Shown here piece after piece: positions 56,085 to 63,701 of a stretch of DNA of 64,000 bases. Each line of letters opens with the position of its first letter. Positions within the stretch are counted from its first letter, which is position 1. A model generated the notes under the pieces. The model was given only the letters and a program-made list of their open reading frames with translations. It made no database searches and was not told the DNA's origin. This DNA comes from an uncultured Chloroflexia bacterium (GTDB lineage Bacteria > Chloroflexota > Limnocylindria > QHBO01). The stretch covers positions 352,001 to 416,000 of the forward strand of contig CAWHAZ010000005.1 of the NCBI GenBank assembly GCA_963827475.1. Direction: 5' to 3'. Position numbers and translations under genes: made by a program.

Positions 56085-58583
56085 CTATCGCGCCGGCAGC
56101 GGACCGACGTCGCCGCGACCGCCGTGGACCCAGAACGACGCGCCATCGGTCACGACCTCGACATTGCCGTCGAGGTCGGTGCGGAAGATGCGCAGACCGG
56201 AGACCTGGGCGAGGGCGTCGAGGGTGGACCGATGCGGATGGCCGTAGCTGTTGTCCGCGCCGGCCGAGATGATGGCGACCCGCGGCCGGGTGGCTGCCAC
56301 GAAAGCCGGAGTCGTGCCCGAGTCCGACCCGTGGTGGGCGACCTTGAGCACCTCCACCGGCCCGAGCTCGCCTCTGCCCTCGAGGAGCGCCTCGACCGGG
56401 GCCTCCGCGTCGCCGGTCAGGAGGGCCTCGAACGTGCCGTACCGGACCAGCAGCACGATCGACCCGTTGTTCACGTCGCCTTCCGGGAGGGGACCGTCCA
56501 CGTCGAGCGCGTCCGGGAACAGGATCTCGAGCGTGACCTCGCCGACCCGGATCCGCTGCCCTGCCGTCGCGGCCACGACCCTCGCACCCGGCTCGCGTTC
56601 GGCCGCCGCCATGAGGGCGCGGTGGGGGTCGGTTTCGATGAGGCGGCCGCCGTCCACGAACAGCGCGACGTCGTGCCGGCGCAGCACCTCGCCGAGCCCG
56701 CCGAGGTGGTCCTGGTGCGGGTGGGTCAGGACCACGACGTCGATCCGGCGCCGGTGGAAGGGCAACGACTGGCCGAGCCGCCGGAGCGTGAGGTCGGGGT
56801 CGGGCCCGGCATCCACCAGCGCGGTAGCGCCACCCGGTGCCTCGATGAGGATCGCGTCGCCCTGACCGATGTCGAGCACGGTGAGGTGGAGGCGGCCGTC
56901 CGAGCCGCTCATGGCGGTGGCCAGGACCACGGCCAGTACCACGCCGAGGGCCACGCGCCGTGGCCGGGCGGCCCAGGCCAGGGCCGGCGCGAACGCCGCC
57001 ACCTCGGGCAGAGCGTGCCGCGAGGAGCCATCGGCTGGCTCCAAGGGCACGAGGTCGGGCGGGCCGGGCTCCGGTCGGCCGTTCAGGCGGTGGACGACCA
57101 GGGCCAGGCCCGGATACCACGTCGCGGTGAACCACGGCGCGCCGGCGAGCGGGATGGCGGCCAGGGGCAGCGCCGCGGCGGCGGTCCCGGTCGCGATGAG
57201 CCCGCGCAGCGGCAGCCACGCCGCGCCACCGGCGAGCCAGGTGCCCGCGTCCGAAGCCAGCGGTGCCGGGACGGCAGCCGCGAGCCCGCCGATCACCGAG
57301 GCCGCCGCCGCGCCGGCCATGACCGCCGGGATGAGCGGGACGACGATGACGTTCGCCAGCGGCGCCACCAACGAGACCTGCTCGAACGTGGCCAGCAGAA
57401 CGGGGAGCGTCGCCGCCTGGGCGGCCACGGTCAGCGCCACAGGCGTTCGGATCCAGGCCGGCCAACGGCCGAGCCGCGCCTCGAGGGGAGCGGCGAGGAG
57501 AATCAGCCCGCCGGTGGCCAGGGCCGACAGCTGGAAGCCGACATCCCACAACGCGCCGGGGTTCACGAGCACCATGACCAGAACCGCTCCCATCAGCGCC
57601 GAGGCGGCATGGGCCGGCGACCCGCCCAGGCGCGCGAAGAGCAGCGCCACGGCCATGAGCGCGGCCCGCACGACCGCCGGCGAGGCGCCGACCAGCGCGA
57701 CGTACGCGACCACCGCCATGACCGCCACCACGCCCGGCACGTGCGGGCCGAACCGCGCCCGCAGCCGGTGGGTGGCCGCCGCGATGAGCGCGACCACGAT
57801 CGCGACGTTCCATCCGCTGATCGCGACCACGTGCGACAGGCCGGCCACCGCGAACGCGTCCCGGATGGCCGGGTCCATCCCGGCCCGCACCCCGAGCAGG
57901 ATCCCCGCACCCAGCGAGGCCTCGGGCTCCGGAACGGTGCGCACCAGCCCGTCGAGCAGCCAGCGCCGAACGCTCGCCGGGGCCTCGAGCATCGGATTGG
58001 ACCGATGCCCGATGACCTGCAGCTCCCACGCGCTGCCCAGCGCGCCGATCCCCTGGCGCCGTAGTCGCTCCCGATAGGCAGCCTCTTCGAGATCGGCGGC
58101 GTCCGCGGCGCGCAGCGTGACCTCCAGCGCGACCTGGTCCCCGGCCTGCACCGCGAACGCCCGCGGAACGCGGACGAGCAGCCGCCCCGGCCTCGGGCCG
58201 TCACCCAGGCTGGGATCCCGCAGCTCGAGGTCCTCCAGGACCAGGTCGTGGGCCGTGCCACGGGGCGTCGGCTCGTCGACGACCACCCCGATCAGGCGCA
58301 GGGGCGTGTCGGTCGGGAGCGTCTCCACGCCCGCGCGTCCGGCGGTCGGCGCGGCCACGGACCATCGGAGGCCACCCGCGACGATCCCGACCAGCAGGGC
58401 GATGCCGATCACCGGCGCCACCCGCATGCCGCCCGGGCGGACCGCGGCCAGCACCGCGGCGAGGGCGGCCCCAGTGCCCACCGCCAGCGCAGCCGCCGGC
58501 CACCAGCCCGCGTCGGCGGTGGCGATGCCGACCAGCGTCCCGGCCAGGACCCCCGGCAGGCCCCACGCCCCCACCTGGATCAT
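56085..58583 (-). CDS. comEC: DNA uptake competence protein ComEC/Rec2
   Basis: GLSHVVAISGWN, GFQLS, LDIGQGDA, THPHQDH, KVAHHGS, YGHPH. Confidence 0.95.
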   Translation of the reverse strand: MIQVGAWGLPGVLAGTLVGIATADAGWWPAAALAVGTGAALAAVLAAVRPGGMRVAPVIGIALLVGIVAGGLRWSVAAPTAGRAGVETLPTDTPLRLIGVVVDEPTPRGTAHDLVLEDLELRDPSLGDGPRPGRLLVRVPRAFAVQAGDQVALEVTLRAADAADLEEAAYRERLRRQGIGALGSAWELQVIGHRSNPMLEAPASVRRWLLDGLVRTVPEPEASLGAGILLGVRAGMDPAIRDAFAVAGLSHVVAISGWNVAIVVALIAAATHRLRARFGPHVPGVVAVMAVVAYVALVGASPAVVRAALMAVALLFARLGGSPAHAASALMGAVLVMVLVNPGALWDVGFQLSALATGGLILLAAPLEARLGRWPAWIRTPVALTVAAQAATLPVLLATFEQVSLVAPLANVIVVPLIPAVMAGAAAASVIGGLAAAVPAPLASDAGTWLAGGAAWLPLRGLIATGTAAAALPLAAIPLAGAPWFTATWYPGLALVVHRLNGRPEPGPPDLVPLEPADGSSRHALPEVAAFAPALAWAARPRRVALGVVLAVVLATAMSGSDGRLHLTVLDIGQGDAILIEAPGGATALVDAGPDPDLTLRRLGQSLPFHRRRIDVVVLTHPHQDHLGGLGEVLRRHDVALFVDGGRLIETDPHRALMAAAEREPGARVVAATAGQRIRVGEVTLEILFPDALDVDGPLPEGDVNNGSIVLLVRYGTFEALLTGDAEAPVEALLEGRGELGPVEVLKVAHHGSDSGTTPAFVAATRPRVAIISAGADNSYGHPHRSTLDALAQVSGLRIFRTDLDGNVEVVTDGASFWVHGGRGDVGPLPAR

Positions 58584-61929: not shown

Positions 61930-62519
61930 GGCGTGCCCTCCCCGGCGCGCCATCGGTCGGCCGCGCCGCTCTCCGGGAACCATGCCATGAGCAGCTCGTC
62001 GCGGTACGTGCCGTCAGCCTGGCGGAACTGGCGCCGGCGCAGTCCCTCGCGGACGAAGCCGGCCCGCGTGTACACCGCGATCGCCCGCGCATTGTCGGGG
62101 AACACGCTGAGCGCCAGGCGGGTCATGCCCCGCTCGCGCACCCAGTCCTGGGCGGTGGCCACCAGGGCAGTGCCCAGGCCGACGTCCCGCCAGCCGCCGG
62201 CCACGGTCACCGACAGCACGCCGACGTGGCGCGAGCTGACATCCCGGTCCGACATCACCAGGGCGTTGCCCACGACCTCGCCGCCGGCGTCGGCGACCAC
62301 CACGGCGGACTCGTCGGCCCGGATCAGCTCCGCGATGAAGAACGCCTCGGACGGCGGGCTCACCGCCGTGGCCGGCGTCACCAGCCAGCGCCCCTCGGCG
62401 CGGACCGCCGCGTACAGGTTCGCCAGGGGCTCGGCATCGGCCGGGCGAGCGTGGCGCAGCACCCATGGACGGCCGTCGGCCGCAATGCGCTCCGAGATGA
62501 AGGTGCTGGTCGTGGTCAC
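61926..62519 (-). CDS. GNAT acetyltransferase (YhhY/AaaT-like)
   Basis: RHVGVLSVTV...RDVGLGTAL, LSVFPDNARAIAVYTRAGFVREG, DELLMA; GGAG SD before GTG 62519; ATGA overlap with leuS. Confidence 0.85.
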   Translation of the reverse strand: MTTTSTFISERIAADGRPWVLRHARPADAEPLANLYAAVRAEGRWLVTPATAVSPPSEAFFIAELIRADESAVVVADAGGEVVGNALVMSDRDVSSRHVGVLSVTVAGGWRDVGLGTALVATAQDWVRERGMTRLALSVFPDNARAIAVYTRAGFVREGLRRRQFRQADGTYRDELLMAWFPESGAADRWRAGEGTP

Positions 62520-62547
62520 CGCCGTGGCTCCGTCGATATCGGTCCCG

Positions 62548-62587
62548 AGAAACAACGCGACCCCGCTTCGTCAGGACGAAGGGGGTC
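62548..62587 (-). terminator. T-box leader terminator
   Basis: GACCCC-CTTCGTC / GACGAAG-C-GGGGTC stem followed by TTGTTTCT; overlaps the 3' arm of the antiterminator. Confidence 0.75.
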
Positions 62588-62620
62588 AGCCTCGCGGTAC
62601 CACCTGAGCTTGACCGATGG

Positions 62621-62696
62621 TGGTGGAGCTGGGGGGACTCGAACCCCCGACCCCCTGCATGCCATGCAGGTGCTCTCCCAGCTGAGCTACAACCCC
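62621..62696 (-). tRNA. tRNA-Ala (anticodon GGC)
   Basis: GGGGUUGUAGCUCAGCUGGGAGAGCACCUGCAUGGCAUGCAGGGGGUCGGGGGUUCGAGUCCCCCCAGCUCCACCA: 76-nt cloverleaf, G3:U70, A73, encoded CCA. Confidence 0.97.
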
Positions 62697-62860
62697 ACGG
62701 TCGGTCCACTCGTCGGCGCGATATCGGACGCCATCCGGCCGGCTCTCACCAGCTGCTCGACGGGCGAGTTCCGCGCTTCGTCGCCACCGGCTTCCACCGT
62801 CCCGGCTCGCTGCGGGCGACGTGGGCGCCTACTGCTCCCGCGTCAACGCGTTCGTGGCCG

Positions 62861-62890
62861 AGTATAGCGAAGGGTGTCGCGCCCTCTCAA
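62861..62890 (-). promoter_or_regulatory. Sigma70-type promoter of the T-box/tRNA-Ala/GNAT/leuS unit
   Basis: TTGAGA-18 nt-TATACT, ending about 11 nt before Stem I. Confidence 0.75.
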
Positions 62891-62916
62891 TCGGTGCCGA
62901 TGGCGCGCCGTCCGCT

Positions 62917-63701
62917 TCAGACGGCCGGCGCCTCGGGCTCCGCTTCGTCCTTCGCCCCGGCTGCCGGGCCAGCCAGGCGGCCCACAGCGGAACCAGGATG
63001 CCCGCGAAGACGATGGTGATGACCTGCGACAGCAGGAAGAAGTCGAACTCGGTGCCCGCCTCGATGAGCAGCGGGACGGCCACGTGGTCCCAGACGACGC
63101 TGATCAACCCGAGCACGGCAACGACCCGCGCGAAGACCGCCAGGCCGGCGGGAACCCAGCCCGCCGCGCCGGCGAGCCCGGCGAAGGCCAGCAGACCGAT
63201 GGCGAACATGACCACGACTCCGCCGTTCAGCCAGAACACGATTCCCTCGACGACGAACCGGATCATCTCCCGGCTCACGAGCTCCTCGGCGAGGAACCCG
63301 CAGTCGCAGTACTCGGGGTTGGTGGCGGCCTCGATGGCGCCGAGGTAGATCAGATTCGACGCGACCCCAAGGGTGCCGGCCACGATGAAACCGACGGCCA
63401 TGAGGCCGCTTCGGGCGTCTTCACGATTCATCGCCTGGCTGAGGACGAGACCAAGGACCGCAATCCCCGCAAACGCGATCGCGAACAGAAGCGACGACGA
63501 GAGGTCTTCGAGCCAATGCTCCTGGGCGTGTTCGAAACCGGCCAGGATGACGTCGACGCCCGTGAGATTGGGATCAAAGGGGGGCTCCGGCACGAAGACG
63601 TGGAAAATCTTCAGCCCGTAGATGACGGCCGCGAGCAGCAACGCGACGGCGATCAACCAGCCAAGTCGGGATGTATGGGTGCGCCAGGCGGAATCAGGCA
63701 T
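62917..63701 (-). CDS. Polytopic membrane protein
   Basis: About 6 TM helices, YCDCGF loop; probable true stop TGA at 62917-62919 after a 1-nt indel. Confidence 0.65.

Follow-up and report, generated by a model that had tools for sequence, protein, structure and literature searches.

A tRNA-Ala(GGC) gene within Stem III of a leucine T-box leader in Chloroflexota and Bacillota

We analysed a stretch of DNA of 64,000 nucleotides (nt) from an uncultured Chloroflexia bacterium (contig CAWHAZ010000005.1, positions 352,001 to 416,000; the window). A complete tRNA-Ala(GGC) gene was located in the loop of Stem III of a leucine T-box riboswitch, on the minus strand and upstream of leuS, the gene of leucyl-tRNA synthetase (LeuRS). 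The best explanation was that one transcript would act both as a leucine T-box and as the precursor from which RNase P and 3' processing would release a major tRNA. We gave this reading a probability of about 0.8. It was supported by the anatomy of the leader, its conservation, the covariation of the helix enclosing the tRNA, the sole-copy status of the tRNA gene, and the position of the promoter upstream of Stem I with no internal promoter-like site. A dual-purpose leader had been proposed in a preliminary description, which was made from the letters of the window; this evidence made it the best reading, with co-transcription in vivo and the processing as its predicted parts.

Anatomy of the leader and its genome

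The window was searched for tRNAs using ARAGORN and for RNA families using the Rfam covariance models at gathering thresholds, with a permissive scan of 62450-62950. The promoter, Stem I, CUC specifier, Stem II, IIA/B element, GACCGA, tRNA, TCGGTC, antiterminator and terminator named in the preliminary description were all present, at the positions listed in Table 1, and every coordinate that it gave was correct. At gathering thresholds, Rfam reported the tRNA alone and no T-box in the 64-kb window. In the permissive scan, the leader was aligned over the complete RF00230 model (positions 1-219) with 50 bits and an E value of 4.5e-10. The alignment put an insertion of 81 nt exactly into the loop of Stem III, and this insertion was the tRNA-Ala(GGC), as the preliminary description had placed it. 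The tRNA (62621-62696) was the only one found by ARAGORN in the window. Its score with the Rfam tRNA model RF00005 was 62.5 bits against a cut-off of 29, and both searches recognised the cloverleaf. It was separated from the 5' strand of Stem III by four bases, the last of which was U, and from the 3' strand by CCA.

The other parts of the leader were those of a normal transcriptional T-box. The specifier CUC was followed by a purine, a tRNA-Leu(GAG) gene was present in the genome, and leuS was located downstream. In the IIA/B element, the loop GGCG (62732-62729) was able to pair with CGCC (62718-62715), where the pseudoknot pairing was judged by eye. The discriminator was GAGUG-[GACCGA...UCGGUC]-AA, which corresponds to the order RRRNG-Stem III-AA; the RRRNG motif on the 5' side of Stem III is defined in the accessible text of PMC7778990 and PMC7583486. 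The 3' half of the antiterminator (62606-62572) was shared with the terminator hairpin 62587-62559, which meant that the two structures were mutually exclusive. The only promoter-like site across 62300-63100 was TTGAGA-18-TATACT at 62890-62861 (shuffle mean 0.0). The open reading frame (ORF) of the GNAT acetyltransferase was listed from TTG 62555, and the likelier start was the in-frame GTG 62519 behind GGAG 62531-62528.

The assembly of the window comprised 1.92 Mb in 7 contigs with 70% G+C and was rated 90% complete. ARAGORN gave two calls of tRNA-Ala(GGC) over the whole assembly, and the nested gene was the only credible one. The calls of tRNA-Ala at C6:47050 and C7:145354 (93-94 nt) were rejected, as they had no tRNA features; one of them was the second GGC call (94 nt). 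The preliminary description had asked whether the nested gene was the only tRNA-Ala(GGC) of the genome, and it was so in this search, a point that rests on a 90%-complete assembly. Among the matches listed for three near-complete relatives, the remaining tRNA-Ala-like hits of BLAST were CGC or UGC isoacceptors or tRNA-Val. No tRNA-Ala(UGC), tRNA-Ile or transfer-messenger RNA (tmRNA) was found by ARAGORN over the 7 contigs, and therefore the ribosomal RNA operon was probably unassembled.

Codon use was counted in 567 long ORFs. GCC, which the preliminary description had called very frequent, made up 49.8% of the alanine codons, and alanine made up 13.3% of all codons. CUC made up 42% of the leucine codons. 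GCC and GCU together accounted for about 7% of all codons in the genome. The cognate tRNA-Leu(GAG) had the 3' end GCACCA with A at position 73, according to ARAGORN and the sequence. Since position 73 is A, it fits the U of the UGGU bulge, in agreement with UGGN/NCCA pairing. A type A RNase P RNA was found with 171.6 bits.

Table 1. Features of the nested leader and the genes downstream of it, in window coordinates
Feature	Position	Strand	Basis
Sigma-70-like promoter TTGAGA-18-TATACT	62890-62861 (-35 62890-62885, -10 62866-62861)	-	10/12 consensus matches
T-box leader, full-length RF00230 (model 1-219)	62855-62569	-	Permissive Rfam scan; same match in whole-genome search
Stem I: GA/K-turn motif, AG bulge (AGCGA), distal loop (GGUGGAA), specifier loop	62849-62755	-	cmscan alignment and motif positions
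Specifier codon CUC (Leu) in GAA-CUC-G context (62771-62765)	62768-62766	-	Motif coordinates
Stem II	62752-62739	-	cmscan alignment and motif coordinates
Stem IIA/B: hairpin CGGA/UCCG	62738-62715	-	cmscan alignment and motif positions
Purine string GAGUG (RRRNG motif 5' of Stem III)	62711-62707	-	Motif coordinates
Stem III 5' strand GACCGA	62706-62701	-	Alignment, covariation
tRNA-Ala(GGC), 76 nt, G3:U70, A73, encoded CCA, U at -1	62696-62621	-	ARAGORN, Rfam
Stem III 3' strand UCGGUC (62617-62612), then conserved AA (62611-62610)	62617-62610	-	Alignment, covariation
Antiterminator: A1 CAGG/CCUG, T-box bulge UGGUACC (62602-62596), A2 GCGAG/UUCGU	62606-62572	-	cmscan alignment and motif coordinates
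Terminator: hairpin 62587-62559 and U-rich tract 62558-62547	62587-62547	-	Terminator-like site; RNAfold -22.2 kcal/mol
GACCGAU, second copy of the Stem III 5' strand, 3' of the terminator	62544-62538	-	Sequence comparison
GNAT acetyltransferase ORF	62555-61926	-	Pfam PF00583 1.8e-16
leuS, leucyl-tRNA synthetase, 882 aa	61983-59335	-	PF13603 9.1e-64, PF00133, PF08264

Conservation of the nesting and of the enclosing helix

The 361-nt leader was compared with 60 relatives using BLAST. Near full-length matches were found in 31 of the 36 other genomes of the family of the window, and the five genomes without a match were 57-82% complete. Shorter matches, from Stem I to the T-box, were found in 8 genomes from two other families of the class. 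These genomes and that of the window gave 40 class loci (29 from best hits, 10 fetched by place, and the own genome). In all 40, ARAGORN placed a same-strand tRNA-Ala(GGC) at a distance of 9-97 nt upstream of the T-box motif. The gene after the leader was GNAT in the family of the window, and leuS followed directly in the two other families.

A wide scan was performed on one genome per species (185,579 species), using a pattern neutral to the type of tRNA: any tRNA with a GGTTCRANTCC T-loop, followed by a T-box motif 16-46 nt on. It gave at least 120 loci. A tRNA was present at the match in 105 of them and was tRNA-Ala(GGC) in every one, and no other tRNA type was nested in a T-box, among the matches listed. 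Ten of the 15 loci without a full tRNA-Ala(GGC) call were inspected (the other five were L134, L155, L156, L157 and L160). Two of the ten, L064 and L098, had the same nested arrangement cut at the edge of the locus. The rest were rejected: L053, L072, L084 and L124 were chance matches in apparent coding regions, L067, L086 and L122 had a chance motif behind a tmRNA or a different tRNA, and L080 was an ordinary T-box whose Stem III happened to fit the pattern. The nested set therefore consisted of at least 145 loci (40 class loci and 105 from the scan).

By record title, the 105 loci were mostly from Chloroflexota (Limnocylindria, Thermomicrobiales, Ktedonobacteria, Anaerolineae and Caldilineae) and Bacillota (Syntrophomonadaceae, Peptococcaceae, Thermoanaerobacteraceae and relatives), among the matches listed. 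Isolates were included, by record title Tengunoibacter tsumagoiensis Uno3, Thermosyntropha lipolytica DSM 11003, Desulfofundulus thermosubterraneus DSM 16057, Desulfotruncus alcoholivorax DSM 16058 and Desulfitispora alkaliphila DSM 22410. Titles of other phyla, such as Armatimonadota, Coprothermobacterota and proteobacteria, were left out of the distribution because the binning of metagenome-assembled genomes (MAGs) may be wrong. In sampled genomes, the exact pattern was found in 32 of 401 from the phylum of the window and in 17 of 121 from a phylum containing Syntrophomonas, and a reversed-pattern control gave 0 in both. The nesting was patchy by family. When RF00230 was applied to 8 diverse nested leaders from other taxa, all 8 passed the gathering score (93.7-130.7 bits), and each match spanned the tRNA.

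Among the loci listed, leuS was found downstream in 122 of 145. It was the next gene in 68 of these and came after at least one other gene in 54; for most of the other 23, the downstream coverage was less than 1.7 kb. A regular expression found CTC in the specifier context in 126 of the 143 loci with enough upstream sequence, and most of the listed misses that reached Stem I also carried CUC, in a slightly different context. The nesting is no peculiarity of one genome but, judged by these loci, an architecture that is widespread and conserved in Chloroflexota and Bacillota.

The nested tRNA had the features of a working tRNA. In the window, the acceptor strands were GGGGUUG/CAGCUCC, with A73 and the anticodon GGC, as required for alanine identity. 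Features were counted in 144 homologues with 68 distinct sequences. The acceptor stem was paired at 7/7 positions in all 144, and G3:U70 and A73 were each present in 143. The CCA end was encoded in 117 and U(-1) was present in 112. The alanine identity features (G3:U70, A73 and an alanine anticodon) were kept in 76 of 76 aligned sequences. We also considered whether the ACCA of the nested tRNA might pair in cis with the UGGU bulge. It was rejected as a conserved feature, since 27 of the 144 homologues had no encoded CCA.

The helix of Stem III was then compared across the tRNA. In an anchored search, the 6 nt immediately before the conserved AA were compared with the 34 nt upstream of the tRNA, and the partner had to be preceded by G. 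The strands paired at 6/6 positions in 88 of 142 loci and at 5/6 in a further 37, with 62 distinct helix sequences (for example, GACCGA/UCGGUC, GAUAGG/CCUAUC, GGUAGA/UCUACC and GAGCAU/AUGCUC). When the 3' flanks were exchanged between loci, 6/6 pairing fell to 6.5%. The RRRNG motif preceded the helix in 104 of the 125 loci with at least 5 pairs. A MAFFT alignment (A1) was made of 76 sequences, one per helix type, leaving out three genomes flagged as unpublished. It kept only the first three Stem III pairs in register, and the 5' strand was misregistered beyond them. In two of these three pairs both partners had changed, in 14 sequences for one pair and in 20 for the other, out of 76. The overall covariation score of the alignment exceeded all 500 shuffles and all slid controls. 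This meant that both T-box flanks belonged to one functional RNA, since covariation across the tRNA is otherwise not expected. The conserved nesting and the Stem III covariation that the preliminary description had suggested looking for in relatives were thus both found, and GACCGA/TCGGTC was confirmed as the base of Stem III.

Promoters were scanned in 132 homologous loci, using the same consensus rule as for the window. In 73 loci, a promoter-like site was found shortly before Stem I, at 140-240 nt upstream of the tRNA; in 2, such a site was present within 100 nt upstream of the tRNA. The preliminary description had named a chimeric join and a separate promoter just upstream of 62696 as results that would speak against it. 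No promoter-like site was present there, and both junctions between T-box and tRNA were bridged by independent contigs from other samples (DNA run X1, records 6 and 8). These contigs excluded a chimeric join. Contigs from RNA libraries also spanned the whole leader including the tRNA (X2 record 15 and X5 record 29); the RNA libraries with matches came from one study, with shares of 0.28-0.34. Their ends at 62566 and 62854 were rejected as transcript ends. Neighbouring contigs overlapped by exactly 30 nt, which indicated that the contig ends were branch points of the assembly graph. The difference in depth (24.8 versus 5.9-13.7 in X2) was rejected as an expression signal, because strains collapsing onto the conserved leader can explain it.

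A proposed transcript with two functions and the alternative readings

In the proposed mechanism, transcription would start at about 62854, from the promoter upstream of Stem I, and the leader would act as an ordinary transcriptional leucine T-box. Stem I would offer the CUC specifier to tRNA-Leu(GAG), and the UGGU bulge would probe the free ACCA end of tRNA-Leu. The antiterminator would compete with the terminator 62587-62559, and read-through would lead to GNAT and leuS. In solved T-box structures, Stem III is helical and varies in its stem and loop, according to the accessible text of PMC7583486. In this leader, the complete tRNA-Ala(GGC) gene replaces the distal loop of that helix. Because the tRNA is located upstream of the terminator, every initiated transcript, terminated or not, would contain pre-tRNA-Ala, and the leader promoter would therefore also be the promoter of the only tRNA-Ala(GGC) of the cell. 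RNase P would cut the 5' side after U-1, and 3' processing would free the tRNA. Cleavage would most likely follow the termination decision, since the decision is made only about 70 nt past the 3' end of the tRNA. Co-transcription in vivo is inferred here, and so are the steps of processing and the time at which they occur.

Several observations weighed against this reading. The 50 bits of the leader were below the RF00230 gathering score of 93 bits. The genome contained three other RF00230 matches, of which C1:21844-22110 and C5:632732-632932 were full-length (67.6 and 61.2 bits) and C5:940799-940862 was partial (26.9 bits). All had an ordinary short Stem III, and all were also below 93 bits. 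The low score of the nested leader was thus partly due to the lineage, and the shortfall of its 50 bits fits the 81-nt insertion plus the composition of the lineage. As all T-boxes of this genome were below the threshold, default Rfam annotation would report no T-box in the organism. Fewer than 5 of 6 Stem III pairs were found in 17 of the 142 loci, and the MAFFT count gave 11-21 unpaired cells of 76 for each pair, partly through the misregister. In 59 of the 132 loci, no consensus promoter was found upstream of Stem I. The RNA-library contigs came from one study in which DNA carry-over is possible, and they served for the junctions rather than for transcription or RNA ends. The three loci from unpublished genomes (L014, L026 and L034, 3 of 145) were also counted on this side, and no conclusion depends on them. 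Finally, in two sister families of the class (L174, L175 and L177), tRNA-Ala(GGC) was located directly upstream of leuS and no T-box was found next to the pair at E <= 0.01. It looks as if the riboswitch had been lost there and the tRNA had stayed linked to leuS. The linkage can thus outlive the riboswitch. It also meant that the tRNA does not need the riboswitch and that the nesting could be selectively neutral.

The alternatives were weighed against the same evidence. An assembly chimera or chance juxtaposition might be considered for a window from a 7-contig, 90%-complete assembly. However, it was refuted by the nesting in at least 145 loci from separate genomes, by the contigs of other samples across both junctions, and by the reversed-pattern control of 0 in 401 and 121 genomes, and we gave it practically no weight. 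It was also extremely unlikely that two independent units abut here, a tRNA with its own promoter and the halves of a decaying T-box relic. The tRNA can be driven alone, as shown by L177, in which a TATACT box was located 13 nt upstream of a tRNA-Ala(GGC) that stands by itself beside leuS. However, the T-box motifs were all intact, all 8 homologues were above the Rfam cut-off, and the helix covaried across the tRNA, which requires both halves in one functional RNA. A promoter-like site close to the tRNA was an exception among the loci (2 of 132) and absent from the window. A further alternative was a tRNA-like structural module of the riboswitch, which would stay in the leader and never be released or aminoacylated. 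tRNA-like structures do exist in longer RNAs, such as the viral tRNA-like structures and mascRNA, and the leader gave a weak match to the mascRNA-menRNA family RF01684 (21.7 bits against a cut-off of 42.5). This alternative was very unlikely, because the genome had no other credible tRNA-Ala(GGC) gene while half of its alanine codons are GCC, and because G3:U70, A73 and the anticodon GGC were kept in 143-144 of 144 homologues over 68 sequences. The frequencies of the encoded CCA and U(-1) pointed in the same direction.

A different question was whether the processing itself regulates the operon. Once the tRNA was excised, the sensor (Stems I-II) would be severed from the discriminator. This might set a time limit on the switch, keep its two parts joined through Stem III alone, or give rise to a defined, hairpin-protected 5' end, which would set the stability or translation of the GNAT-leuS mRNA; the efficiency of termination would set the ratio of tRNA to mRNA. 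Two phyla have kept the nesting, in every case with one and the same tRNA isoacceptor and specifier, and it was longer-lived than a neutral accident might suggest. In addition, the second GACCGAU copy (62544-62538) was located between the terminator U-tract and the ribosome-binding site of GNAT. It was exact in about half of 50 family-type loci, where its flanks varied, and it paired with the 3' strand of Stem III at 7/7 positions, versus 6/7 for the real 5' strand. It could form an alternative helix after excision of the tRNA. There are also precedents for processing. Cleavage of the T-box leader of Bacillus subtilis thrS stabilises the read-through mRNA. The met T-box leader of Staphylococcus aureus is cleaved by RNase III, according to the accessible text of PMC7913692. 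However, the order of events is not readable from the sequence, the GACCGAU copy was limited to the family of the window and too invariant for a covariation test, and the sister families kept the tRNA-leuS linkage without a T-box. We therefore considered regulation by processing possible, with the odds against it.

The one-transcript reading could tentatively be carried further along these lines. The nested tRNA might be an ancient obligatory working part of the leader, inherited since before the divergence of Chloroflexota and Bacillota. The cell would have no tRNA-Ala(GGC) promoter other than that of the leuS leader, and the ratio of tRNA to mRNA would be set by how efficient the terminator is. 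Excision by RNase P would turn the spent riboswitch into a major tRNA and an mRNA with a folded new 5' end, which would control the output of LeuRS. In the family of the window, this folded end could use the GACCGAU copy. We regard this wider proposal as speculative and more doubtful than otherwise.

Relation to known systems and side observations

T-box riboswitches are a textbook system of RNA-RNA sensing and a drug target, and Stem III has recently been recognised as part of the aminoacylation sensor. The canonical transcriptional T-boxes (RF00230; Bacillus leuS, tyrS and glyQS) share with this leader the Stem I specifier, Stem II, IIA/B, the order RRRNG-Stem III-AA, the UGGN bulge, the competing antiterminator and terminator, and the cognate synthetase gene downstream. 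However, the described Stem III loops are short, whereas a 76-nt non-cognate tRNA gene was present here. In the Escherichia coli thrU-tyrU-glyT-thrT-tufB operon, tRNAs are co-transcribed with the mRNA of a translation factor and freed by RNase P and 3' processing. The tRNA of the present leader would likewise share a promoter with the downstream mRNA, with release proposed here. The tRNAs of that operon merely precede the mRNA, whereas this tRNA is within the sensor of a riboswitch and upstream of its decision point. RNase P cleaves some riboswitch leaders. Processed leaders such as those of thrS and S. aureus met are cut after acting, with an effect on mRNA stability, and a similar cleavage is proposed here; no stable functional RNA is known to come from those leaders, whereas the excised piece would be a major tRNA in this case. 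In MALAT1/mascRNA, RNase P cuts a tRNA-shaped element out of a longer transcript and in this way sets the ends of the two products. It has in common with the present leader the tRNA-shaped element inside a longer transcript. It differs in being eukaryotic, in not being a decoding tRNA, and in having no riboswitch context.

Structured additions to T-boxes are known. The accessible text of the review PMC7583486 mentions odd insertions that occur in each of the T-box domains, with structure and function unexplained. The staphylococcal glyS stem Sa, in the accessible text of PMC9177973 and PMC4574755, is likewise an extra structured element in the discriminator region, which is conserved in its lineage and leaves the T-box otherwise normal. 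It is a hairpin of the antiterminator/terminator domain and contains no gene, whereas the element described here is a tRNA gene in Stem III and is shared across phyla. The preliminary description knew of no T-box carrying a whole tRNA gene. Full-text searches of the literature gave no report of a T-box with a tRNA gene in it, although older comparative surveys might mention one, and the accessible text of PMC7778990, PMC7583486 and PMC2494555 contained no mention of it. The T-box and the tRNA are each genuine, and the undescribed part appears to be their nesting, conserved together across phyla.

The arrangement indicates that the discriminator tolerates a structured insertion of 80 nt, and it is a natural example of a riboswitch that contains a gene. 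The expression of a major tRNA would be tied to the promoter of the synthetase for a different amino acid. The interleaving of co-transcriptional folding, RNase P processing and the riboswitch decision, and the use of abortive leaders, become testable in available isolates. If processing does determine how much LeuRS is made, tRNA maturation would dismantle the sensor of this riboswitch. There is also a consequence for annotation: model-based T-box finders lose score on nested leaders, and tRNA finders report an ordinary intergenic gene.

Some variation was observed around the nested leaders. The interval from the tRNA to the T-box motif contained an extra 97 nt in L037, with further hairpin-like sequence, and an extra 45 nt in L027. 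In L085, a Chloroflexota MAG record, a second tRNA, tRNA-Ala(CGC), was located immediately upstream of the nested leader. The first gene after the leader was a class IV aminotransferase (IlvE-like) at L065:3437-4381, L085:120-1058 and L097:1081-2016, and an AMP-binding enzyme at L059:6408-8000 (a Desulfotruncus record). A GNAT gene was under the leucine T-box, between the leader and leuS, throughout the family of the window. None of the NCBIfam models reached its cut-off for this GNAT, and the best was rimI with 52.8 bits against 86.4. In the stand-alone arrangement of L177, a terminator-like hairpin was present between the tRNA and leuS. A fluoride riboswitch was found near leuS in another sister-family genome (L173:1228-1305, minus strand; 44.6 bits against a cut-off of 34). 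Downstream of leuS in the window, a ComEC-type competence protein with Competence and metallo-beta-lactamase domains was encoded at 56085-58583 on the minus strand.

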